A stretch of 64,000 bases of DNA, taken from positions 49,687 to 113,686 of IMG/VR virus record IMGVR_UViG_3300045988_114464; one strand, given 5' to 3'. The DNA is from a virus. Of the stretch, positions 4,820 to 56,990 are shown in pieces (the first letter of the stretch is position 1; every line of letters begins with the position of its first letter). A program made the translations under genes and the position numbers. The notes under the pieces were generated by a model that ran no database searches, was not told the DNA's origin, and was given only the letters and a program-made list of their open reading frames with translations.

Positions 4820-5033
4820 TGGGTAGTTTAGCAGGGAAAGTCCTAAGTCTATAAAGATATGGAAAACCCCCAACGACTATCTCTTGGCGAGAGAGTAAGC
4901 TACAAGCTAATGGTAGCTGAAAAATCCTCCCCTCTTTGTAGAGGTGAACAAATAGTCTGAACATCTATCGAAAAGATAGAGCAGTTCTTTAAGAACGGCA
5001 TAGGGAGTTGCGTCCTTATGTGAACATATTGCA

Positions 5034-5918
5034 ATGTTTAATCTTCAGTACGTTGCCGCAAACCTTGGTGTAAACCTTGAGCAAGGCGGTCTATCCGTAA
5101 CTGAAGAAGAACTAACTGTTGGCGCAGTTGGTGGCGCAGTAACACTAACTAACAAGCCAATCGCATTCTCTGGTTCTTATATCGGCTGGTATAAGAAGCC
5201 TTCTGACGCTGATTGGACTATTGGTACTATTGACGCTGACCAGAAGAAGATGAATATTGCTGGTGCAAAGGAAAATGAGCACTATTGTGTTAAGTATTTC
5301 TATCAGAATGAGAACGCTAAGTCTATTACTATTAAGGCTCAGTTCGTTCCAAAGGTGCTACACCTTGTTCTGATTAACGACCTATTCTCTGGTTCTACCG
5401 CTGATGTAGCGGCTTCTACTTCTAAGTATGGTCGTCTAATTACCGATATTCCTCAGTTCCAACTCGATGGCGCACAAAATCTGGCATGGGCGGCAGCTTC
5501 TGCGGCAACCGTTTCTCTGTCTGGTAAGGCACTGGCATATTCTGATACCGAGTCTTGCGAAGTAGACCCAGTATACGGTACTATGACTCAAGAGATTTTT
5601 GGCGCTAAGTGGCAGGATGATGTTGTAGCACTCGCTTGCGAGAACGCTGAGATTGACCTTGCTGAATCTGGTACTGAAACTCTGATTGTTCGTGCGGTAT
5701 TCGGTGGCGCAATTGCTTCTCAGCGCAAGGAAAACTCCAACTTTACCTTTGCTATTGTAGATGCCCCTGCTTCTACTGCAACTGGTACTACTGTTGGTGC
5801 TAATACTGGTATTGTAACTGCTGGTACTACTGCTGGCACTGCTGTAATTTCTATTACACTTACCAATTATCCGAACGTACCACCCGCATACGCTACCGTA
5901 ACCGTAACTGTTGGTTAA
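5034..5918 (+). CDS. major virion structural protein (probable major tail protein), exon 2 with C-terminal Ig-like domain
   Basis: No RBS before ATG 5034. Same codon bias as exon 1. The C-terminus GIVTAGTTAGTAVISITLTN...ATVTVTV looks Ig-like. Followed by a strong terminator. Confidence 0.7.
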   Translation: MFNLQYVAANLGVNLEQGGLSVTEEELTVGAVGGAVTLTNKPIAFSGSYIGWYKKPSDADWTIGTIDADQKKMNIAGAKENEHYCVKYFYQNENAKSITIKAQFVPKVLHLVLINDLFSGSTADVAASTSKYGRLITDIPQFQLDGAQNLAWAAASAATVSLSGKALAYSDTESCEVDPVYGTMTQEIFGAKWQDDVVALACENAEIDLAESGTETLIVRAVFGGAIASQRKENSNFTFAIVDAPASTATGTTVGANTGIVTAGTTAGTAVISITLTNYPNVPPAYATVTVTVG

Positions 5919-5924
5919 TCTGAA

Positions 5925-5959
5925 TAGGGAGGAAGGTTATTCCTTTCTCCCTATTTTTT
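5925..5959 (+). terminator. rho-independent terminator
   Basis: 11-bp stem agggaggaagg/cctttctccct, 5-nt loop, then a T6 run. Confidence 0.75.
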
Positions 5960-5978
5960 CATAACAGGAGGTAACATT

Positions 5979-6275
5979 ATGTGTGAATATACTAATGGTA
6001 ATTTGTGCAAAGTTACCAATTCTGTTTGTCCTTATATGATGTACTGCGAAAAAATTCAAGGATATAAGCCGTCAAGATATATGCCTGACGATTGTCCACA
6101 AAAGATAAAAGCCCAAATTCCTGCTGGCTATCGCAGAGTTATTCAAGAACGAAAAGGCAAACTTTATATTGAAATTGGAGAACAAGCAGTTATTGTTCCA
6201 AATCCTTTTGACCACGTTCCACTTTATGTCAAAGCGACAAAATTAAAGAATGGAACATGGCGATTAAAGGAATGA
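5979..6275 (+). CDS. Cys-rich small protein
   Basis: 98-aa ORF; RBS caggagg; several Cys pairs in the N-terminal third. Confidence 0.55.
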   Translation: MCEYTNGNLCKVTNSVCPYMMYCEKIQGYKPSRYMPDDCPQKIKAQIPAGYRRVIQERKGKLYIEIGEQAVIVPNPFDHVPLYVKATKLKNGTWRLKE

Positions 6276-6290
6276 TGGGAGGGTTGCTAA

Positions 6291-6671
6291 ATGGCAGATG
6301 ACATCGGTATCTTATATCATAAGGTGAACGACCTGTCTGAACGAGTGACAGAATTAGAAAGCACCCGACCGTTTATGCAGGAAATGATAGAGAGAGAAAT
6401 TAAAGTAAGTGAAAAATTAGATGCTACTCTTGACGCTGTTCAGTTGTCTATGGTGCAAATGAATGTAAAGATGGACGAACAATCAAAGGCGATTGAAATG
6501 TTGCAGAAAAATTCTGCGGAGTCTAATAAAAAATTAAACAATCGACTTGACGACCTTGAAGAAAGAGGACAATTTGATTTCTTAACTTATATTAAAACAA
6601 ATTTGCCAACAATTATTCTTACTGGTATAGTTGTTGGTGCTTATGTTGCAAAACATTTTAATCTCTTGTAA
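6291..6671 (+). CDS. coiled-coil protein with C-terminal membrane anchor (XhlA-like architecture)
   Basis: 126 aa. Heptad-like Glu/Lys/Leu-rich body and a hydrophobic tail PTIILTGIVVGAYVA. Confidence 0.5.
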   Translation: MADDIGILYHKVNDLSERVTELESTRPFMQEMIEREIKVSEKLDATLDAVQLSMVQMNVKMDEQSKAIEMLQKNSAESNKKLNNRLDDLEERGQFDFLTYIKTNLPTIILTGIVVGAYVAKHFNLL

Positions 6672-6694
6672 TGAAAGAAAGGAACTAAAAGGAA

Positions 6695-7117
6695 ATGGCA
6701 ATTATTCCAGAAAAAGAAACTACATATCTTGATAAGTACGGTGTTACCGTCAATCGTTATCTGACTTATGCTCAGATTCAGCAAATTGCTGAATCAACTA
6801 TGAAATTCCATACTTGGGCTGAACGTCAACAGAATATTGATATGCTAATTCTTGTTCATGCTACGGATATGACCGTTGAAGAAATTGAGAAGCATACACA
6901 TGACGAACTTTTGCAGTGTAGCCTTATTGATGAAGTAATGTTTCATGTTGACAACGTTTATAGGATTTATGACGCTCTTGAATATCATGAATCTACTCAG
7001 CGTGCGCTTGCTCAAATTCTTGGGGAAATCAACAAGTTTATGGATACACCTGTTGGGAAGAATGTAGTGCAGAAATTTGCACGCAAGGCAATGAACGATG
7101 GCGATAACAAGCATTGA
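6695..7117 (+). CDS. hypothetical protein
   Basis: 140-aa ORF; RBS aaaggaa. Confidence 0.55.
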   Translation: MAIIPEKETTYLDKYGVTVNRYLTYAQIQQIAESTMKFHTWAERQQNIDMLILVHATDMTVEEIEKHTHDELLQCSLIDEVMFHVDNVYRIYDALEYHESTQRALAQILGEINKFMDTPVGKNVVQKFARKAMNDGDNKH

Positions 7118-7547
7118 AGCCTTAATGTCAATATGCGCTCCTGCAATTCAAAGCGCGTTAAAGTATACAGTGGAAAAGATTAAAGAAAAGAATGAGCAAG
7201 TTGTTAATCAGATAGTATATGCTGTTTATTCACCTCAAATGTATCCTCGTACTTTTGAATTACGAGAAGCATGGAAAGGCGAAGCCAATGCTTCTGGTGC
7301 AAGCGGTCATGCAACGTTTGAATATGACCCAAGCAAGATTAGTGCTCATTCTAATTTAACTGACGAAGCTGTTCCTTATTTGGCAGAAATTGTATATCAA
7401 GGTCTGGCGGGTAAGATTTACGGTGAAGGCGCTTGGACACAGGCTCGTGACGCATGGCAAGCCCTATTAGACGCTTGTAGTGAAGATGCTATTAAAGAAT
7501 GGTTTTATCAAGGCTGTAGACAAGCAGGATTGCCAATAGAAAGATAA
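7098..7547 (+). CDS. hypothetical protein
   Basis: 149-aa ORF overlapping the previous gene by 20 nt. Confidence 0.55.
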   Translation: MAITSIEALMSICAPAIQSALKYTVEKIKEKNEQVVNQIVYAVYSPQMYPRTFELREAWKGEANASGASGHATFEYDPSKISAHSNLTDEAVPYLAEIVYQGLAGKIYGEGAWTQARDAWQALLDACSEDAIKEWFYQGCRQAGLPIER

Positions 7548-7578
7548 AATAAGGTATAGTACAGAATTGAGGATAACT

Positions 7579-8112
7579 ATGGTTTATTGTGGTATTGATG
7601 CTTCAACCACTGCGGTAGGGTGGAGTATATTCAATGGTACTGACCTTATTGATTATGGGTGCTTTAGACCTAATGGTGATGATTGGCGCGACCGCACTCA
7701 GCAAATCGCGCCTTTCATTAAGCAACTATTAGAAAAGTATCATGTTAATAAGGTGATATTAGAAGATGTTCCTTTAATGGGTAAGCGAGGTAATAAAACC
7801 TTGGTTATCCTTGGTGCTGTGCAAGGAATGTTATTAGGAGTAACATCTTCTATGAATATTCCTACCGAGTTTATTTTACCAAGCGCGTGGAGAAGTCCGA
7901 TTGGACTTTTTGATGGTACGAAAGCTGGTACTCGTAGGGATGAAATGAAAAGAAAGTCAATAGAAAAAGCAAATGAACGATTCGGTCTTGAACTAAAGTG
8001 GGTGTCGCCTTGTAGTAAGAAGAACGATGACGATATTGCTGACGCTATTCTGGTAGCATACTCACAGATAAGCAAAGTTCGCTTTGTCAAAAACCCAAAA
8101 GTGAAGGAGTGA
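7579..8112 (+). CDS. RuvC-like Holliday junction resolvase
   Basis: N-terminal VYCGIDASTTAVGW (first catalytic Asp), ILEDVP (Glu), C-terminal DDDIADAILVAY (Asp pair). RBS gagga before ATG 7579. Confidence 0.7.
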   Translation: MVYCGIDASTTAVGWSIFNGTDLIDYGCFRPNGDDWRDRTQQIAPFIKQLLEKYHVNKVILEDVPLMGKRGNKTLVILGAVQGMLLGVTSSMNIPTEFILPSAWRSPIGLFDGTKAGTRRDEMKRKSIEKANERFGLELKWVSPCSKKNDDDIADAILVAYSQISKVRFVKNPKVKE

Positions 8113-35748: not shown

Positions 35749-36237
35749 TCACTTCACGCTAATGCTCTTGTTCTCCACCAGCTTAACACCATGTAGCGGA
35801 GTACCACTCTGTACCATCTTCTTGAGGTCGGTCTTGCTATACTTGTAGGTTTCAATCTTAGTGCATAGGTCTTTGTGGAACTTGAGAAATTCTTCTTCAT
35901 TGATCTCGGTGCTTGTAGACTTACGGAAAGAAATCTTGCAACGTGCAGTTTCAAACTTGCTACCTTGCAGGTCATCAGACAGCATAACCTTTAGACGATT
36001 GATAAGATTTTCCTTGACCTTTCTACGCTTTGCAAGGTTGACTTCTTCCTTCTTGATAGCGTCACACTCGGCTTCAACAGACTTAATGTAACAAGCGATG
36101 TTTTCAATCTTTTCGTCATGTGCTACTTGAAGCTGGTCAAGTAGCGACATATCGGTAAGGATTTCGCCAGTTTCTTCGTCAATCTCGATGTTGTTCATAA
36201 AGTCAAGAATTTGAGAGTTAATATCATATAGTGTCAT
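35749..36237 (-). CDS. Gp157-like protein (siphovirus Gp157 family)
   Basis: RBS ggagg before ATG 36237. Coiled-coil N-terminal half with IENIACYIK...AEC.AIK.E, typical of Gp157-like proteins. Confidence 0.5.
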   Translation of the reverse strand: MTLYDINSQILDFMNNIEIDEETGEILTDMSLLDQLQVAHDEKIENIACYIKSVEAECDAIKKEEVNLAKRRKVKENLINRLKVMLSDDLQGSKFETARCKISFRKSTSTEINEEEFLKFHKDLCTKIETYKYSKTDLKKMVQSGTPLHGVKLVENKSISVK

Positions 36238-36945
36238 TTTGATTCCTCCATTAAATAGTTGTACCATGTTTCAGCCATTGCTTGCGCGATAGATGGGAAA
36301 GTTTTACTACGATTCTTAGCGCGTTCAGCTTGGTTCTTACCGCCTTGAGCGTCACACCAGTTTACTCTTTGTCCATTGTGGAGATAGTATTTAGCGTCCG
36401 GCTTATCAAAATCGTTACGTCTTTCAAGTAAAGGTAGACCCTTTAACCAAAGACAAGTGCGCTTCATGTCATAGCTTTCGTCATCTTTACTCGTGACAAA
36501 GTAATAGGGGTGGATAATCTGATTTGGCTTACGATAATGCGTGTTCATATAGCCAACAGGGTTTTCAATAGCAATATGCTTACAGTTGGCATGGACAAAG
36601 TTCATAAAGAAATCATACGCTTCTTCACGTTGCTTAATGCGTTCAGCAACTTTTTCTGGTGAGTTACATCGTAAGCTATAATGTCTTGTCCCTGCCACAG
36701 TAAGGTAAGTACAAGGTGGATGAGCAATGATTAAATCCCACTGTCCTTCCACCTTATGCACTTTGCCGTCCATTGTGGTAAATTCACAGTTACCGTTAAG
36801 TAAACTTAACACATCACCTTTAATATGCCATTCAGGGTGTCCACCGCTACACTCTTGAATGTCACAGGAGAAGCAACGCCCCCCCCAACTCACGGAAAGC
36901 CTTACAAACAGTTTGGCTTTCTTCACAAGCAATTAGAATATTCAT
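36234..36945 (-). CDS. DNA (cytosine-5) methyltransferase, reading frame broken at a G8 tract
   Basis: Motifs IIAHPPCTYL (PC) and IENPVG (ENV). The RBS-linked start MNILIACEESQTVCKAFRELGG (36945) is out of frame with the body ORF 36234-36932. G7 would restore the frame. Confidence 0.8.
36879..36886 (-). repeat. G8 homopolymer (coding strand) in the C5 methyltransferase
   Basis: Direct count: C8 on the + strand. Confidence 0.95.
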
Positions 36946-38674: not shown

Positions 38675-39389
38675 TTAATCATTATTATATTTTCCTTTCC
38701 ACCTAAACAGCTTTTCTGTTTTCTTAGGCTGATTATTCTTGTTATAGTCAAGCGTTCTTCTCAATTCCTTTTCCCAGACAACTTCAAAATCGTCTGGCGC
38801 TTCTTGCTCGGAAATAAATACAATACATCTCTTAGAAAGTTCACGCATATATTCCCAAAATTCTTCGTGGTTAAAATCACCAGTTGTATAACCAGTAGTT
38901 TTAGCATAAGGCGGGTCACAATATACAACCGCCCCGTTTGGAATATCAACTTCACGATAATCAAGACAAGTAAAATTGGCATTTTGTACACCTTGCAAGT
39001 CACGAAGTAAACTGCGTTCCGCTCGGGCACAATAATTGTCACCTCGTTTATTACTTGCCAACCCACCAAACCATTTACCACCAAACGAACAACCAAAACC
39101 GACAAAACCAGTTAATGCCTTATTCTCGTCTTTGTGCTCTTTGATGTAATAATATTCTTCTTTAGTGATAATAGAAGGTGGTGTCCAGCCAGACTGTAAA
39201 CCTTTCCACATTTCAATCAAATATGGATGCTTATCATTAAGAATTTTGGTTTCTGCTTTTACTTTCGCTTCAACAGCACAAGAGCCACAGAACAGACTTA
39301 CGAATGTCTGCCCCCCCCAAGTTCAAGGTGTGGTTGATAACTTGTGCAATCTGAGTTGAGATACGAGATTTTCCGCCCATGTATTGCAT
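38675..39389 (-). CDS. dam: DNA adenine methyltransferase (Dam-like, DPPY), reading frame broken at a G8 tract
   Basis: The start MQYMGGKSRISTQIAQVINHTLNLGG (ATG 39389, RBS ggagg) is out of frame with the body ...QTFVSLFCGSCAVE...DPPY (ORF 38675-39220). G7 would restore the frame. Confidence 0.8.
39311..39318 (-). repeat. G8 homopolymer (coding strand) in the dam-like gene
   Basis: Direct count: C8 on the + strand. Confidence 0.95.
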
Positions 39390-39390
39390 T

Positions 39391-39447
39391 GTTAATTACC
39401 TCCGAAATTTGTTTAGAAATACGAGATTTACCGCCTAAGTAACGCAT
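39391..39447 (-). pseudogene. orphan 19-codon 5' fragment of a second dam allele
   Basis: ATG CGT TAC TTA GGC GGT AAA TCT CGT ATT... encodes MRYLGGKSRISKQISEVIN. It parallels MQYMGGKSRISTQIAQVIN of the adjacent gene, and its 3' end supplies that gene's RBS. Confidence 0.65.
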
Positions 39448-39576: not shown

Positions 39577-40218
39577 TTATTCAAAATTAAACTTATATAC
39601 TCTTTTAACCCAACTTAAAAAATCTTCTTTTGACATTGTACTTTTGGCTGTGTTACAATATTTGCAACAAGGAACTGTATTTGTGACAGTATAGCCTATG
39701 TTACTATCAATTCTGTCAATTCCATTGCATTTTACAACAGTATCAGAAAATAAACCGTCTGCTTTTGTTTCGTTTCTTCTATCATATAAAACTTTAGAAT
39801 ACTCTAACCCACAATAATAACATGGCGATTTTGATTTTTTGATAAAATCTTCTATTGGCATAATTGTCCCATTAAATTTTTTGTGCCTTCTCATTAAATG
39901 GGAATATTGAACTTTGAAAATGGCGTATTCTCTATCTTCAAATAACCCAAATTGATTTCCTCTTTTTTTAAGAAACTCGGTTAGTAAGCATCCGCAACTT
40001 TTTGATTTTCCACTTGATAAATTATCGCCAACTACAATTTTTTGCTGACCGCAATCACATTGGCACAACCATGTATGTTTTCCCCTGTGGTCTTTACCCA
40101 TGTGTTTTATTACTACCAATCTTCCATATCTTTCACCCGTTCTGTCTCTAAATGCGCTCAATAATAAACCTGCTTTCTTTTTTATTGAGTTCAAGGCAAT
40201 CGCCATTCTTAATATCAA
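39577..40218 (-). CDS. free-standing HNH-like homing endonuclease (paralog family of three); start region ambiguous
   Basis: GERYGRLVVI...WLCQCDCG...SCGC N-terminal module; C-terminal GIDRIDSNIGYT..N.VPCCKYCN. The good RBS+ATG at 40222 is in another frame upstream of an A6 run. Confidence 0.6.
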   Translation of the reverse strand: MILRMAIALNSIKKKAGLLLSAFRDRTGERYGRLVVIKHMGKDHRGKHTWLCQCDCGQQKIVVGDNLSSGKSKSCGCLLTEFLKKRGNQFGLFEDREYAIFKVQYSHLMRRHKKFNGTIMPIEDFIKKSKSPCYYCGLEYSKVLYDRRNETKADGLFSDTVVKCNGIDRIDSNIGYTVTNTVPCCKYCNTAKSTMSKEDFLSWVKRVYKFNFE

Positions 40219-40253: not shown

Positions 40254-40774
40254 TCACTTCTTCTGAATTTCTTCAAAGACAATCTGCTTTGGTAACATCT
40301 TGTGGCACACATACGCACTACTGAAAGGTGGGTTAAGGCTTGGCTTTTGGTCTGCGTAGTCCTTGAAGTAAGCAACTCTGCGGTTAAGGTACATGATTTC
40401 AAACTCATTGTTCTTAAATATATCGAACCTTCGCTGAGATTCAAACAAGCCTACAACACCCACCAGCATTGCGAACGGCTTGCCAATTTCAAACAGTCGT
40501 TCCAACACTTCTGTCTTGACGCTATAAGGTGGATTGCTGATAATCATGTCACACTGTGGTATTGGCATTGTGAAAAAGTCCTGACCATTATCAATGTGCG
40601 TACAGATTACCTTGTTGCCCTGTGCTTTAAGCATTTTAACGAAGTGTGATTCTTCTGTATCAAAAGGACACCATACCGTCAGTTGGGGGGGGCATAAGCC
40701 AAGATAGGCTTAACGGCATAGGGCGGTGTGTAGAAGTTATCGTTGCCAGAGCCAGCTACTTTATCCATTTTCAT
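40254..40774 (-). CDS. N6-adenine DNA methyltransferase (NPPY), reading frame broken at a C8 tract
   Basis: The start MKMDKVAGSGNDNFYTPPYAVKPILAYAPP (ATG 40774, RBS aaggagag) is out of frame with the body QLTVWCPFD...IISNPPYS (ORF 40254-40634). C9 or C6 would restore the frame. Confidence 0.75.
40685..40692 (-). repeat. C8 homopolymer (coding strand) in the NPPY methyltransferase
   Basis: Direct count: G8 on the + strand. Confidence 0.95.
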
Positions 40775-40787
40775 GATTGTTCTCTCC

Positions 40788-41243
40788 TTACTTAATCTCA
40801 ATAATTTTTTCTGCATCGCTCATCGTCATATCATTGGAAACGCGTTTAACATAAAAGAAATACTTCTTTGCGCCATCCTTTACTTTGTAGACGATAAAGA
40901 TATAATTTTGTCCAAGAACAAATGGCTCATCGTCTGTGTATTGAATGGTTTGGCTAACAACTTGTTCGTCAATGATTTCAGCGTGAGCGTCTAACCATGC
41001 TGAATCAATTTCTTCTACACAACAAGCGGGATAAGAAAAATTTTCTGTACCATTATAATAAGTGGTATAGTTAACAAATTTACCGTTATTATCCTTCTTG
41101 GCTTCTACAATATGCCCCCAATCTCCATATTGAGGAAGGATACCGAGAATAAAATCAATACCGTCTACAGTGTCTACAAGTCTTTCGTCAAATTCTTTGG
41201 CGCTTTTCAGCGCTTCTTCCCAAGGCTTAATATAAACTTTCAT
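40788..41243 (-). CDS. hypothetical protein (tandem paralog 1)
   Basis: MKVYIKPWEEALKSAKE...GDWGHI...CCVEEI... is shared with the next gene. Confidence 0.55.
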   Translation of the reverse strand: MKVYIKPWEEALKSAKEFDERLVDTVDGIDFILGILPQYGDWGHIVEAKKDNNGKFVNYTTYYNGTENFSYPACCVEEIDSAWLDAHAEIIDEQVVSQTIQYTDDEPFVLGQNYIFIVYKVKDGAKKYFFYVKRVSNDMTMSDAEKIIEIK

Positions 41244-41255
41244 AGCGTCCTCTCC

Positions 41256-41714
41256 TTAGTTAATTTCTCTAAAATCTTCTACAGTTTCTTCGCAACCGTT
41301 ATACGAAATACAATAAACATAAAAGAAATAAGCGTGTCTTGCGTCCATAGCCTTGTAAATCGTGATGTGGTGGGTTTCGTAACTTTCAAAGTTATCGTCC
41401 CATGCATCTGTGGTGAATACTTCTTCGCTAAACTTACTTGCGTGCTCTTCAAGCCAATTTGGTGTGATTTCTTCTACGCAACAAGCATCATAACTAAAAC
41501 CTATATCTTTAGACCGAGAATGCACTACGGTATAAGAAGTGTATTCATCATCACTGTTTTTCGTAACCGTGCAAATATGTCCCCAATCGCCCATGCGTCG
41601 AGAAACGCCCAAAATTTCCGCACGGTCAGGAAAGAAGTTTACAAACCCTTCATGCTTCTTGGCTTCTTTCAGTGCTTCAACCCACGGTTTGATATATACT
41701 TTCATAGTTTCCAT
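41256..41714 (-). CDS. hypothetical protein (tandem paralog 2)
   Basis: RBS aaggagg before ATG 41714. METMKVYIKPWVEALKEAKK...GDWGHI...CCVEEI. Confidence 0.55.
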   Translation of the reverse strand: METMKVYIKPWVEALKEAKKHEGFVNFFPDRAEILGVSRRMGDWGHICTVTKNSDDEYTSYTVVHSRSKDIGFSYDACCVEEITPNWLEEHASKFSEEVFTTDAWDDNFESYETHHITIYKAMDARHAYFFYVYCISYNGCEETVEDFREIN

Positions 41715-41768
41715 AATAAAACCTCCTTGATTTGATACTATTGTACCATTCTCAAGGAGGTCTGTCAA
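41715..41768 (-). promoter_or_regulatory. composite terminator hairpin with nested promoter and SD-containing 3' arm
   Basis: On the - strand: TTGACA, 17 nt, TACAAT. Arms ACCTCCTTGA/TCAAGGAGGT bracket the -10, followed by TTTATT and the ATG. Confidence 0.6.
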
Positions 41769-46691: not shown

Positions 46692-46720
46692 ATTATATCA
46701 CATTTTTATCAAGAAGTCAA
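46692..46720 (-). promoter_or_regulatory. sigma-A type promoter for the HNH-like gene, followed by a two-hairpin leader
   Basis: On the - strand: TTGACT, 17 nt (ending TGa), TATAAT. 9-bp and 12-bp hairpins at 46653-46676 and 46618-46648. Confidence 0.55.
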
Positions 46721-49242
46721 TTATTTTTTTCTTGGTTTTCACCATATCTTTGAAATTGAATCTCAATTTCGCCATTTTTTCTAACTTCAGTAATTAAATT
46801 TATTGGATAAGGAAAGATAGAATTTTTATAGGTCTTAACAACAAAAGTATCATCTCTACGGTAGCCTGTTAAAATTAACAAACATCCTCTGCCAAACCAT
46901 GATTTATCTACAATTATTCTTTCTCCATTTTTTTCGACAGAAATTTGCGCTTTATACTTAGCAAATTCAAGTCCATTAAATTTTATTTGTACTACATTAT
47001 TATTGGTGTCCAATATAGTAATACTATGATGAGCGTCATTACGCGCTATTACTGTTCCCATAATTCGACTAAGCTGATACTGTCGCCATTCACGCTTGCC
47101 GTACTTTTTAGTAACAAACATTGGCTCAGTAGGCAACTTATCAAATGTAGTAACATTGTATCTATCAGCGTCAATGCAAGCTAATTCATGCTCATTAGAG
47201 TAATAGGACAGTGCTTCAAAACTCCAATGATTAACGTTCATGTTAGGCAACTTATCACGCATACGAGCCTTGATAGATTGTTCGTTATACATTTTTAGGA
47301 ACTCTGGCTGGTTAATATAAGCCTTTAGTTCTTCAGTGACGTTCTTGAATAGCTTCTCAAGCGACTTATCTACAACAAGCGTTCTGCCTTCCTCATCATA
47401 CCACCAATCTACATTTTCTTCAAGTTGACTACGGCACATTGAATCGAAGAAAACTAATGCTCGTTCGTCAAGCCAATAGATTTTCTTTGACTTGAATTTA
47501 GGATGTGTACCATAGAGGAATTGCTTTGAACACATGTATTTTTTGAAAGCAAGTGGCATGGTAAGGGTGTTGGGTAGCTTACAGCCAATGCGTTGTAATT
47601 CAGCTAAATTAGCAGTGGTAAGTGTTTGTTTGCGAGGGGTAGAAAGGGCGAAATACGCTTGCATGACACGCATACGGTCAGGACAGAACTCATCAAAACA
47701 GCCAGCCTTAATTAGTTGGATAAACTTAGATGGTGTGATAAGTGTACCTTGGTATGAGTTGCGCGTATAGAAGTCGCGGAAAGAAGTGTAGGGGCGGTTT
47801 GCGATAATTTGTTGAGCAATTTCTGCGTTAATGGATGAAATACCGCCTAAACCGAAAAGAATGGTGTTATCTTTTTCTCTTGGCGTGAAGTCCATATCTG
47901 AACCATTAGCAGAAGGAGCACTAACATAGATATTAGATTGACGCATTTTATAGATGGCTTTAGCAATCTCTGAATAATCTGTACTGCCCTTGCGTTCGAC
48001 CTCTGATTCAACACCAGATGCTTCGGTGGATAGACACGCGCAATTCCAATATACACGAGGATAGAAATAATTAAGATTAAGTTCTTGTAGAGCAATAATT
48101 GAATAAGAATAGGAATGTAATTGGGAGAAGGAATATCCCATACTTGCCGCAAATACAACATTCCAAATATAATCAAGGAATACTTCTCGCGTACCAATTT
48201 TACGTCCATATTCAAAAAATTGTTGCTTTGCTTCTTCTTGTAGCTTTGCTGACTTCTTTGCGATGGATTTACGAAGTTTGTTGCTTTCTTTCAAAGTATA
48301 ACCAGCTACACGCTTATCCATAGACAAACGCATAACTTTTTCCTGTGAATCTGCAAGACCATAAGCGTCTGAAAGATATTCCCACAGAACTGCGCGTTCT
48401 TCGTCATTTAGTCCAAAGCTAATAGTGTCTTGTACCCATGCTTCGTGACTGTTTTTATAACGAATATAACGGTCAATAGGTGTTTCGTCTGCATTATCTG
48501 GTTGTAATCGCAATAGGCTATTAGCCGCAGACAAATCCATTACTGAGCGAGGTTTAGTTGCAGACAACGCTTTAGCCGAAATCGGAGTATCAAATTGAAA
48601 GACAGAATAAATAGATGGTAGAATATCCCACATTTTAGTATCATTGTATTCCAATACATCAGGATGTAGCCACTTGTAATATGTTGCTTTAAGTGAGCCT
48701 TCCCATGTAATTTTGCCGTTTGCTAACAGATAGTCCATTGTTTTATGAATCTTATCTGCCGCAGAAACCGATAGCATATCCATCTTAACCAGACTTGCGG
48801 CTTCGCTATCCCATAGGTCATAACAGGTGCTTAATGCTCCATCAGGCGAACGAATAGCAGAAACGTAATTAACATAAGGCTCGTTACAGAGCGTTACTCC
48901 TGCGGCGTGACGACCTCGATTAGTAATCAATCCTTCAAGACCAAGAGCGGATTCTTTAAGTCCTTCATATTTAGCCATTTCATTGACCATTTCAGTAATA
49001 GGTCGTTCTCCAAGCAAACATTCCTTTAGACTTGCTACTTTACCACGGTTGACAGGAACAAGAGATTTAAGATAACCAGCGGTATCATTTCCAATACCCA
49101 GTCCTTTACAAGCGCGTTCAATAGCTGTTTTTGCAGAAATCTTAGAAAAAGTAGTTACATTAAGAACCTTATCTTCTCCAAAGAACTCTTTCATTTTATT
49201 GACGATTGCTTTCTTTTTGGATGCTTCAGAATCGTTATCAAT
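46717..49242 (-). CDS. dnaE: DNA polymerase III alpha-type (C-family) polymerase, exon 2
   Basis: Begins IDNDSEA, completing the PD-IDND catalytic Asp motif. Long polymerase body. No RBS of its own. Confidence 0.85.
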   Translation of the reverse strand: MDNDSEASKKKAIVNKMKEFFGEDKVLNVTTFSKISAKTAIERACKGLGIGNDTAGYLKSLVPVNRGKVASLKECLLGERPITEMVNEMAKYEGLKESALGLEGLITNRGRHAAGVTLCNEPYVNYVSAIRSPDGALSTCYDLWDSEAASLVKMDMLSVSAADKIHKTMDYLLANGKITWEGSLKATYYKWLHPDVLEYNDTKMWDILPSIYSVFQFDTPISAKALSATKPRSVMDLSAANSLLRLQPDNADETPIDRYIRYKNSHEAWVQDTISFGLNDEERAVLWEYLSDAYGLADSQEKVMRLSMDKRVAGYTLKESNKLRKSIAKKSAKLQEEAKQQFFEYGRKIGTREVFLDYIWNVVFAASMGYSFSQLHSYSYSIIALQELNLNYFYPRVYWNCACLSTEASGVESEVERKGSTDYSEIAKAIYKMRQSNIYVSAPSANGSDMDFTPREKDNTILFGLGGISSINAEIAQQIIANRPYTSFRDFYTRNSYQGTLITPSKFIQLIKAGCFDEFCPDRMRVMQAYFALSTPRKQTLTTANLAELQRIGCKLPNTLTMPLAFKKYMCSKQFLYGTHPKFKSKKIYWLDERALVFFDSMCRSQLEENVDWWYDEEGRTLVVDKSLEKLFKNVTEELKAYINQPEFLKMYNEQSIKARMRDKLPNMNVNHWSFEALSYYSNEHELACIDADRYNVTTFDKLPTEPMFVTKKYGKREWRQYQLSRIMGTVIARNDAHHSITILDTNNNVVQIKFNGLEFAKYKAQISVEKNGERIIVDKSWFGRGCLLILTGYRRDDTFVVKTYKNSIFPYPINLITEVRKNGEIEIQFQRYGENQEKNN

Positions 49243-50111
49243 CAATTATACCGTTGGTTATTTATTCCCAATACTTTAACACTGATTTAACAGTCGGTTT
49301 AGACTATATCTTCATCTCTATTTAAGAGAGGATGGCGCTGGATAAGGGGAGTTTCACCCCTTACCGCTTAGTCGTTGCAGATTTCTTTATCCATTTGTTT
49401 AGTCCAAACATTAAGAGTATAATTCTTTGTTCTCCGATATTTAACTAAACTCGTATATGAAATACAAGGGTTGTATTTCTGAAGAAAATCGCGTAGTTCT
49501 GTGCCACCTACTAATATAGGCGATACTACTTCTCCGTCTTTTAATACTTGATAATGTTTATAATTGCGTAAAGCGTTTATTCCACTATCTGTATAACTTT
49601 GATGGATATTTTCTTCTTGAGTAATCCATTTAAGATTAAGTATAATGATTATTATAAATATTGGCATCTTTGTGTCCCACAACAGCACCTTCAAACCAAC
49701 CGTTTATAAAATGCAAAGCAACCAATCTATGAATTAAACAATGTTTATATATTCCGTCATTTCGCTTCAGAGTAACACAAAGATAAGCACTTGTTGAACC
49801 ACAATAAGGGGACAATTTTCTCCATTTGTTTCCCATGCGTTTTGACATAACAGTTCCGTTATCTCCGATAGCGTAGCCATCATAATTTTTAATAGCTACA
49901 AATCGTTCACCGTTAATCGTAAAAAGTGTTTCCATCAGTTTCACCTCCTTTGTATTAAAATGTTTGGATAAAGACTTTCCACAGTATTGCCATGTTGCCG
50001 ATTCTAAACAACAAGGTTTCCACTGTTAGCACCTTGTAAAGGCACACCCTGTATGTACAGGTTCACCATCTTGTTTTCTATGCGTCACCGCATAGCCAGA
50101 CTATGTTGTTA
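49243..50111 (-). mobile_element. group I intron in the DNA polymerase gene
   Basis: P1 is CCAGAU paired with GUCUGG (11-16 nt into the intron), with a U.G pair. The 3' core is GAAGATATAGTC. Omega-G at 49243. Splicing restores ELPD-IDND. Confidence 0.85.
49368..49935 (-). pseudogene. intron-encoded HNH homing endonuclease, frameshifted
   Basis: RBS aaggagg before ATG 49935. ...VVGHKDANIYNNHY ends at a stop, and the motif continues as LNLKWITQEEN in the +1 frame (ORFs 49636-49944 and 49368-49694). Confidence 0.7.
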
Positions 50112-51563
50112 ATCTGGAAGTTCCACACCTCTCATGTGATTTAAGTGTCGCCAAGACGGCATATAATCACCAAGGGGAAGAGGGTCAATTTGAGTAATTG
50201 AAAGCAAATAGCAAGTTTCAAAGCCAGCCGCAGAACCACGGGCGGGCATTGACAAACTACCAGCGTCCCAAATCAGTTCGATAATTTCTGTCATCGTACT
50301 GTAATAAGACGGCATGGAAGTATGAAGCTGGTCACTGATAATTTTAAGTTCTTTCCATTCTTCGTTTAAGCGTTGAATGTAAGGTTCTACTTCCTTTCCA
50401 CGATTTAGCACCTTATCAATCAAACCTTGTTCAGCTTGATAGAAAAAATATCGTTCATGGATAGGGCGGTCAGCACTTGCATAATAACCAAAGTATTCAT
50501 ATTTATCATAATATTCTTTGAATTTATGTCGAGTATGAAAAATCTTTGGTAGTTTGTCTAATGGAATTTGAGGGATAATAGGGTCATGTAGAATGTTATA
50601 TTCTTGTACTCTATCAGCAATCTCATCGCTCCAAGCAAACATCTTATCAATTTGCTCATTAGTAAAGTCAATAAGTAGATATTCACGCAATTCTTGTTCG
50701 CTCATGCAATATGCCGTTGCATAAAATGAGTCTACTTCTCTATCGCCTTCTTGCGAAAGCAAATAGGTCTTGTGAATAACCGCATCTTCTTTTCTAAGAT
50801 AATGTGCGTCAGTTGTGGCGATAATAGGAATATTTGTCTTTTCATGCAGTTTCCACAACAAACGATTAACCTTGCTTTGGTCTGTATCGGCTTCACTTGC
50901 TGGCTGTACTTCAAGATAAAAATTACCTTTGCCAAAGATATACTGAAAATAATTGGCTTCTTCTACCGCTTGTTGAAAAGAACCTTGTAAAAGAAGTTTG
51001 TCAATTACCGAGCCTAAACAAGCTGAACTTGCTATTACATGACCACGATTACCACCAATCACTTCTTTAAGGTCGGTATAATACGTTGGTCTACGATAAA
51101 TTTTACCTTGTTTCCATGCTCTTATCCATGCTCTTGTAGACAATTCACGCAGTTGCTTATGACCTTCAGTATCAAGAGCAAGAAGAATAAAGTGATAATA
51201 CGGTGTAGAGTTTGGCGTTTCGCGGTTAAGCAAATCATCTTCTTCTCTAACAGCGTAAATCTCATTACCTAAACCAAGAGTAAATGGTCTATCTTTCTCC
51301 ATAGACTGCCATTTCTTCAAGGCTTGAATATGGCTACTGATACCTTCGTGTTCAGTAATACTGATACCACGCAAGCCAATATCATAAGCGTATTGAATCA
51401 AGTCTGGCAATCTATTTACTACATCAGGGAATCCAAGCATTGCATTGCTGTATTCCGAGTGCGTGTGATTATTGTACACTTCTAACCCCTCCTTAAAACA
51501 AAAATGGGAATAGCTTTTAACTACTCCCATTCTATCACATATCTGTTCACTTGTCAAGCTCAA
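50112..51563 (-). CDS. dnaE: DNA polymerase III alpha-type polymerase, exon 1 (PHP domain)
   Basis: PHP motifs NHTHSEYS, ITEHEG, ATTDAHY. Ends ...GVELPD at the 5' splice site. Confidence 0.85.
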
Positions 51564-56565: not shown

Positions 56566-56877
56566 TTAGCCGAACGCAGTAAAATAAACCATTGTAGAGT
56601 ATTCGTGACCAATGTTGAACCGTAATGTATTTTCGTCCCAAGACATTTGAAATAGAATTATGTCGTGGTCTTCTAAGCCTTCTAAATTGTACACCTCGGT
56701 TTGACCATTGACAGCAATTCCGTATTTGTCCTGTCCGAATTTGACAGTAATAAAATATGGGTCGAATGAAAATGTTACTGTATACATTCGTGAATAGTGA
56801 ACCGATACCGATTGTACTTCGATTCGACAACTGTTGTTTTTCGAAGAAAACATTTCTTTCATTACTTTTGCATCCAT
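56566..56877 (-). CDS. hypothetical protein (paralog 1 of the MxAKVMKE pair)
   Basis: MDAKVMKEMF...; the ATG lies 8 nt after the G8 tract. Confidence 0.55.
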   Translation of the reverse strand: MDAKVMKEMFSSKNNSCRIEVQSVSVHYSRMYTVTFSFDPYFITVKFGQDKYGIAVNGQTEVYNLEGLEDHDIILFQMSWDENTLRFNIGHEYSTMVYFTAFG

Positions 56878-56885
56878 TACTTACG

Positions 56886-56893
56886 CCCCCCCC
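56886..56893 (-). repeat. G8 homopolymer 8 nt upstream of ATG 56877
   Basis: Direct count: C8 on the + strand. Confidence 0.95.
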
Positions 56894-56945
56894 AACTGAA
56901 CGAGAAGTTTGTAAGTTGTGAACATCAGGAGGATTGCTTACGCGC

Positions 56946-56990
56946 TCAACGTAAGCCCCCCCCCAGTGAAACAATGGTTTGGTTAATCAT
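56946..56990 (-). CDS. 14-codon leader ORF crossing the G9 tract
   Basis: RBS aaaggagg 9 nt before ATG 56990. Encodes MINQTIVSLGGGLR followed by a stop, as sequenced. Confidence 0.4.
   Translation of the reverse strand: MINQTIVSLGGGLR
56956..56964 (-). repeat. G9 homopolymer inside the leader ORF
   Basis: Direct count: C9 on the + strand. Confidence 0.95.

Follow-up and report, generated by a model that had tools for sequence, protein, structure and literature searches.

A methyltransferase gene in the genome of an uncultured, gut-type phage of ~113 kb is broken near its 5′ end by a run of eight C residues. The start codon opens a frame that closes shortly after the run, and the remainder of the gene, with its catalytic motif, lies one frame over. 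The question is whether this gene has died, is read across two frames, or is held in one state of a reversible switch. We consider it probable that the run is a slipped-strand contingency locus that switches an orphan phage methyltransferase, and that the copy found in the window (the whole 64,000-nucleotide stretch analysed) is the OFF variant of a functional gene.

Organization of the interrupted methyltransferase gene

The gene is encoded on the − strand and has the following parts:

40254..40774, −: whole interrupted methyltransferase gene of the phrog_799 family, 173 aa at C9, with NPPY at residues 81-84
40789-40782, −: ribosome binding site (RBS) aaggagag, read directly from the sequence
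40774-40772, −: start codon ATG, which opens a 31-codon frame
40679..40774, −: N-terminal frame at C8, the OFF-state product, 31 codons (MKMDKV...AYAPPN) followed by TGA at 40681-40679
40692-40685, −: C8 tract (G8 on the + strand), codons 28-30, with length polymorphism in relatives
40254..40684, −: methyltransferase body frame (QLTVWCPFD...NPPYS...QKK-stop), one frame over from the ATG at C8

The RBS and the ATG are separated by 7 nt (6 nt with the RBS taken as aaggagaga), and the RBS overlaps the TAA (40788-40790) that closes the upstream gene. The N-terminal frame opened by the ATG at 40774 reads MKMDKVAGSGNDNFYTPPYAVKPILAYAPPN. Past the tract, the body frame reads (C)PPQLTVWCPFDTEESHFVKML...ISNPPYS..., a continuation also given as QLTVWCPFDTEESHFVKML...ISNPPYS..., and ends at the stop at 40254. 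In an in-silico rebuild of the gene at different tract lengths, C9 yields an uninterrupted ORF of 173 aa and C6 one of 172 aa; C7, C8, and C10 each run into a stop 1-9 codons past the tract. The rebuild by tract length leaves no other frame disruption in the window copy. The layout of ATG, TGA, and body frame given in a preliminary description of this DNA, together with its proposal that C9 or C6 would restore the frame, is reproduced both from the sequence and by the rebuild.

An alternative start that would rescue the C8 state was considered and rejected, as the body frame contains no ATG, GTG, or TTG ahead of the tract. At C7 and C10, the body becomes continuous with a third-frame ATG (product P0132), giving a protein that lacks the invariant N-terminal residues.

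Two tandem paralogues, at 40788-41243 and 41256-41768 (both −), are found directly upstream of the gene, with the sequences MKVYIKPWEEALKSAKEF... and ...METMKVYIKPWVEALKEAKKHEGF...; a Pfam search returned no match for either of them.

Identity of the encoded protein and position of the tract

The protein matches the PHROG family phrog_799, annotated “DNA methyltransferase” (E 3.5e-31). The Pfam EcoRI_methylase profile scores 21.7 bits, below its cut-off of 26.4; no NCBIfam model matches the repaired protein, and no relative in the PDB is detectable by sequence. The AF2 (AlphaFold2) model of the repaired protein has a pLDDT of 87.5 and a pTM of 0.85, and Foldseek returned 22 PDB matches to it at E<=1e-3, all the named ones being SAM-dependent methyltransferases. 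Among the best matches, which have query TM-scores of 0.5-0.62, are enzymes that act on adenine N6 in nucleic acids, namely KsgA/DIMT1, type I HsdM, and PacII M. As modeled, the fold is that of a class I SAM-dependent methyltransferase. The catalytic motif IV, (D/N/S)PP(Y/F), is represented by the NPPY at residues 81-84, in which N81, P82, and P83 do not vary across 39 homologues.

From the sequence and the predicted structure, the product is most likely a small orphan amino-methyltransferase of the NPPY type, putatively an N6-adenine methyltransferase that would recognize a target motif in DNA. DNA is the predicted substrate because of the phage context and the PHROG annotation; the best structural matches of the predicted fold include rRNA adenine methyltransferases.

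When the 39 homologues are aligned, the tract falls in the one loop of the N-terminal region that varies and bears indels, flanked by the invariant residues Y27 and W35. Other sequences found in this loop are KPNS, PNDA, EEGA, APPPA, and PPPSGV. Most homologues among 80 viral loci have no tract there. Several separate lineages, though, have a tract at this position, either C7-C10 in other flanking sequence or G6/G7, and the tracts of these lineages include both in-frame and out-of-frame lengths. This distribution points to a tract that arose repeatedly and independently at a permissive site.

Long G/C tracts in the window

Six C8 matches, in five tracts, are found in the window, against a mean expectation of 0.12 from 100 dinucleotide-preserving shuffles, none of which reaches the observed count. 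The lengths of G/C runs in the window have a gap between short and long runs, with ten of length 5, one of length 6, none of length 7, and five of length 8-9. The window has a G+C content of 38.5%, and its A/T runs go no longer than 7. A bimodal distribution of G/C runs is also found over 852 kb of related loci (length 4, 1625 runs; 5, 264; 6, 27; 7, 30; 8, 60; 9, 33; 10, 5), where the second mode is 8.

Three of the five tracts fall in methyltransferase genes that are unrelated to one another, each tract in the first 30 codons of its gene. Besides the interrupted gene described above, the tract-bearing features of the window are:

38675..39447, −: D12-class Dam-like adenine methyltransferase gene (PF02086, E 2.2e-20; phrog_56), with G8 at 39311-39318
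36234..36945, −: third methyltransferase gene (MT3; phrog_757, E 8.6e-57), with G8 at 36879-36886; G7 or G10 restores the frame
56886..56964, −: two tracts outside methyltransferase genes, G9 at 56956-56964 and G8 at 56886-56893

As read from the sequence, the tract is C-rich on the mRNA of the interrupted gene and G-rich (G8) on those of the other two methyltransferases, in agreement with the preliminary description. That description also held that the interrupted gene requires a length change opposite to that of the G8 genes. This is correct in so far as G7 or G10 restores the G8 genes, and incomplete for the Dam-like gene, which is also restored by G9 by way of a second start.

Tract length in related phages

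Searches of viral and metagenome contigs yielded eight independent relatives at 90-97% nucleotide identity, with conserved flanks. Their tracts are as follows:

L001, L002, L087: C9, full-length ORF
L083, L084, L085: C8, truncated
L086: C5 with a TGG-to-TGA change in the body, truncated and decaying
L089: interrupted tract TCCCTCTCC (GTC CCT CTC CAA ATG), fixed in frame

With the window included, C9 is found three times, C8 four times, and C5 with a nonsense codon and the interrupted in-frame tract once each. The exact 31-aa OFF peptide of the C8 state (...APPN) is called on 133 public contigs, and close variants of it on 36, 16, 5, 3, and 3 further contigs. The predicted product of the C7 state is represented by 37-aa peptides ending in APPTDSMVSF on 17 and 7 contigs, C10 is implied by product P0132 (LMPPPQLTVW...), and a C11-type state by a 32-aa peptide in a variant flank. 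Full-length APPQL proteins, the product of C9, are also present among the called products of public assemblies. Taking public assemblies and relatives together, C5, C7, C8, C9, C10, and C11 all occur. The preliminary description had proposed that tract length switches the gene and that a tract invariant in length, with no detectable frameshifting, would mark it as dead. The lengths in fact differ among relatives, the closest of which are in frame at C9, and the range of C5 and C7-C11 in assemblies supports the proposed switching, although differences from one assembly to another speak for it indirectly.

In a tree built from the gene without its tract, ON and OFF alleles interleave, and tract length must therefore have changed repeatedly. 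The nearest neighbour of the window copy (C8) on this tree is L001 (C9), at 4.6% divergence. C8, an OFF state, is the commonest state in the lineage of the interrupted gene, and a second lineage has C8 in six of six cases. Given this predominance, C8 alleles could be expressed in some other way.

Selection on the methyltransferase body and alternative explanations

All pairs compared over the 141 codons that follow the tract have a dN/dS of 0.00-0.08. L083 and L084, both OFF, differ by 24 synonymous and no nonsynonymous changes, which corresponds to a dN/dS of 0.00 at a dS of 0.36. For the window copy, the values are 0.04-0.06 against all relatives, and 4 to 6.5 amino-acid changes are specific to its lineage. 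Strong purifying selection acts on the body, OFF-OFF pairs included, and since dN/dS is low even in those pairs, the body frame must have been expressed throughout the divergence of these phages. L086, the one clear case of decay, also has its tract shortened to a stable C5.

The locus has four of the features by which a contingency locus is recognized: a repeat of hypermutable length lies inside an ORF, repeat number toggles the intact ORF, the polymorphism has conserved flanks and does not follow phylogeny, and selection persists despite the frequent OFF state. Four other explanations bear on the same data. One, which we hold to be unlikely, is that RNA polymerase stutters on the C8/G8 run and produces some C9 mRNA, in which case the OFF state would be leaky, possibly beside switching of the DNA. 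Homopolymers of 8-9 nt fall in the range of RNA polymerase slippage, and such leakage would explain how C8 predominates with the body still under selection. However, variation at the DNA level is directly seen and is enough for the data, and there is no conserved, fixed out-of-frame design of the gene. In bacteria, the known productive slippage sites are, moreover, A/T runs, G/C hybrids being more stable.

A second explanation, programmed −1 ribosomal frameshifting, would make C8 the normal genotype, with the ribosome slipping over two proline codons at C_CCC_CCC. The preliminary description offered such a slip as the equivalent of a C9 tract, and formally this stands: the heptamer is valid and lies in the zero frame of the ATG at 40774, and the product of a −1 slip is identical to that of C9. 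C8 is also the most frequent state in assemblies, and C8 genomes retain purifying selection on the body. As the mechanism at work, the slip is nonetheless very improbable. No stimulatory structure is found in the 101 nt from the tract onward: their MFE of −20.9 kcal/mol is close to the −20.3 averaged over shuffled sequences (z = −0.17), and 72 of 200 shuffles are as stable or more so. The two-frame layout is not conserved, given the C9 in-frame, interrupted in-frame, and C7/C10/C11 alleles and the single ORF of most homologues, and the G8 tracts of the other two genes would call for a shift in the other direction (+1). C_CCC_CCC is not known as one of the efficient slippery sites of bacteria.

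That the C8 copy is a pseudogene heading to loss, with the tract as an incidental mutational hotspot, is hard to reconcile with the low dN/dS of the window copy against its relatives or with the absence of any nonsynonymous change between two other C8 alleles. Besides the tract there is no disruption of the frame, and tracts occur at the same loop in independent lineages. Decay does occur in these phages, as in L086 with its C5 and nonsense codon; in the window an HNH endonuclease has taken the place of a neighbouring methyltransferase, and the window copy has the lineage-specific amino-acid changes mentioned above. We nevertheless regard a dead gene as a scarcely plausible reading. Lastly, although some platforms are error-prone on homopolymers, an error of sequencing or assembly has a negligible probability: the same C8 and peptide recur on the 133 contigs, from many assemblies, beside C7, C9, and C10, the 8-9 nt mode is confined to G/C runs, and contig names (MEGAHIT-style for a 113.7 kb ENA metagenome contig 100% identical to the window over 5 kb, SPAdes-style for those of the relatives) indicate short-read assemblers, whose assemblies are presumably not prone to systematic homopolymer error.

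Other tract-bearing genes of this phage

The tracts of the other methyltransferase genes also vary in length among relatives, between G7, G8, and G9 in the Dam-like gene, G7 and G8 in MT3, and C8 and C9 in a fourth methyltransferase. The Dam-like gene is distinguished by a 58-nt duplication of its N-terminal coding segment in the region 39300-39447 (−), which places two starts upstream of the tract, MRYLGGKSRIS (39447) and MQYMGGKSRIS (39389), in different frames. The start at 39447 needs G9 and the start at 39389 needs G7 or G10, which leaves the gene ON in two of its three tract phases. The gene is OFF only at G8, the length found in the window, L001, L002, and L084. In L085 the tract is G9, and the upstream start opens an ORF that continues into the body as far as the locus extends, short of the stop. 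The copy in L083 is without the duplication and is ON at G7. In having two starts the gene is similar in design to H. influenzae lic1, with its multiple ATGs. The MT3 gene of L084 has G7 and reads through the tract in the correct frame.

The fourth methyltransferase, of the N6_N4 type (MIDIKNGDCLELMPHIPPQSVDMIL...), is found in relatives between the interrupted gene and the Dam-like gene (L001 6520-7200). Its C8 in L001 is an ON state, and its C9 in L002 and L087 is an OFF state. In the corresponding region of the window (39577-40218, −), an HNH endonuclease gene is found in place of this methyltransferase, of which a remnant, MIDIKNGDCLEL, persists near 40183-40218.

In L089 (ENA ERZ18707882 NODE_5, 112 kb), a close relative, every tract is resolved together (5001-8100). 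The tract of the interrupted gene is there broken by three C-to-T changes and in frame, MT3 has TTA-G6 and is in frame, the tract of the fourth methyltransferase is interrupted and the gene internally deleted, and no Dam-like gene is called. This pattern suggests a coordinated gain or loss of hypermutability across loci.

The two tracts outside methyltransferase genes are close to each other. The G9 tract lies inside a 14-codon upstream ORF that has a strong RBS (aaaggagg-N8-ATG 56989, MINQTIVSLGGGLR-stop), and the G8 tract ends 8 nt before the ATG at 56877, at the place expected of an RBS. Downstream of both is a pair of paralogous small genes, MDAKVMKE... (56877-56566) and MNAKVMKE... (to 56094). 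With the small gene at 56877 as the query, no relatives were found among viral contigs.

The flanks of the tracts are alike. When each is read with the C run forward, all five tracts (36879, 39311, 40685, 56886, 56956) have a G directly 5′ and A(A)[C/G]T on the 3′ side. Three of the five are C8-AACT, and the tracts at 40685 and 56886 are alike at 18 of 19 positions (TTAYG-C8-AACTGA). These likenesses hold even though the C run is not on the coding strand of every gene. Other lineages have recurring flanks of their own, for example TTG-Cn-AA in L069. The common flank G-C8-AACT was considered as a DNA-level signal or a copied module, which we do not favor, as flanks differ across relatives and lineages. 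The flank of the interrupted gene is partly different in relatives (ACA/ACG, AAATG), and that of MT3, also present in L089 with its shortened tract, encodes a conserved FRELG motif. The likeness of the flanks is probably due largely to run extension at the codon level (TTG before G-runs, CAA/CAG after C-runs), together with coincidence.

Genome context and tracts in other phages

Structural genes of the window lie on the + strand. Its replication genes, among them those for a RecD-like helicase and DnaE, lie on the − strand, and it also encodes an SLH-domain protein. The replicative polymerase appears to be split (46717-51563, −). The DnaE-like ORF (46717-49245, −) begins at position 104 of the Pfam profile, and a separate polymerase ORF (50109-51563; phrog_405/7513) is found beyond several small ORFs that lie between the two. 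Related Enterocloster phages likewise have the polymerase match in two pieces, and four of the six have an annotated “DNA endonuclease” under the match.

A megablast search with 24 kb of the window found no near-identical cultured phage. The nearest isolates are Enterocloster bolteae phages of ~100 kb, with ~45% amino-acid identity in DnaE. Together with the SLH-domain protein, this kinship makes a member of the Clostridia or Lachnospiraceae a candidate host. The Enterocloster phage homologue of the interrupted gene, at 65% identity, has no tract. In Enterocloster phage CB473P3 (L090, OP172757.1), a G8 tract (2808-2815) is found at the start of a small CDS, CB473P3_00049, after the lytic amidase gene.

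In a different uncultured lineage (L015, L017, L031, L065, L074-L080), a 12.5 kb locus carries 7-11 G/C tracts with lengths of 7-10 nt. In L075, the sole locus of this lineage examined gene by gene, the tracts are found mostly in DNA-modification genes. The carriers are C5-cytosine methyltransferases, PAPS-reductase-like proteins, and the homologue of the interrupted gene, and some genes contain two tracts. Near-identical genomes differ at nearly every tract, with lengths in L015/L017 of 9/8, 9/8, 9/8, 9/7, and 8/9.

A model for switching and its relation to known systems

In the model that we favor, slipped-strand mispairing during replication of the phage DNA would change the tract by one base in either direction, at a frequency that we infer to be high. 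Each change would shift the frame set by the start codon relative to that of the methyltransferase body, giving the ON state at C9 or C6 and the OFF state at C7, C8, C10, and C11. Independent tracts in several methyltransferases would then produce progeny with a mixture of methylation genotypes. Such a mixture could be of benefit as bet-hedging between hosts whose restriction is blocked by methylation and hosts with systems that are triggered by it. By analogy with T2 agt, bet-hedging against host restriction is probably the purpose of the switch.

Whether the phage as a whole carries a multi-switch epigenome, in which three to four unrelated orphan methyltransferases, each with its own tract, would allow 8-16 genotypes per population, and whether this arrangement recurs on a larger scale elsewhere, is a proposal to which we give even chances.

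A precedent for a tract-switched DNA-modification gene in a phage already exists in two cases, the BPP-1 methylase and T2 agt. According to 2004 work on Bordetella phage BPP-1, as cited in PMC4791379, an adenine methylase ORF of this phage contains a poly-G (G/C) homopolymer of variable length. BPP-1 shares with the phage studied here an adenine methylase, predicted in the present case, and a G/C homopolymer inside its ORF, and differs in the methyltransferase family and the host clade. It has one tract in one gene, whereas tracts are found here in three genes of unrelated families (four in relatives), and the evidence in BPP-1 comes from isolates rather than from comparison at population scale. 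In coliphage T2, the DNA-modification gene agt contains a homopolymer with reversible changes of +/-1, the measured reversion is ~1000-fold above that of a point mutant, and the progeny escape the modification-dependent TgvAB or the modification-sensitive McrA/BC defence (Gomez, Barrick and Waters, bioRxiv 10.1101/2025.10.21.683753). The bet-hedging logic proposed here is the same. The agt case concerns A-runs in a glucosyltransferase gene of a T-even phage and a measured reversion, whereas the present case concerns C/G tracts of 8-9 nt in methyltransferase genes known from sequences alone.

Length-variable tracts also act on other phage functions. In Fletchervirus phages of Campylobacter, hypermutable polyG tracts of 7-11 nt are reported in receptor-binding genes, where they give rise to ON/OFF subpopulations (Sorensen et al. 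2021). Those tracts act on receptor-binding proteins and adsorption, and those described here would act on DNA modification. In bacteria, the phase-variable mod/hsdM phasevarions of Haemophilus, Neisseria, Helicobacter, and Campylobacter switch stochastically between ON and OFF and thereby change methylation genome-wide (PMC5149525, PMC4889913). Like the interrupted gene, they carry a simple-sequence repeat toward the 5′ end of a methyltransferase ORF. Phasevarions are, however, chromosomal, usually belong to Type I, III, or IIG restriction-modification, and mainly alter host gene expression; the methyltransferases described here are orphans carried on a phage, with no linked nuclease. A search of the literature found no description of combinatorial, multi-gene, tract-driven diversification of phage DNA modification, and tract-laden DNA-modification clusters in uncultured phages are apparently a wider pattern that has not been described.

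Phage methyltransferases are usually viewed as constitutive anti-restriction tools. The comparative data presented here indicate that several of them are kept functional by selection and yet are mostly OFF behind hypermutable tracts. If this interpretation is correct, the recently proposed concept of phage contingency loci would extend from the A-runs of T-even phages to G/C tracts in gut-type phages, and the tracts would provide a mechanism for methylation heterogeneity inside phage populations. It would also follow that a frameshifted methyltransferase gene in an assembled viral metagenome is often a phase variant and not a pseudogene or an error, which annotators of such assemblies would need to bear in mind.
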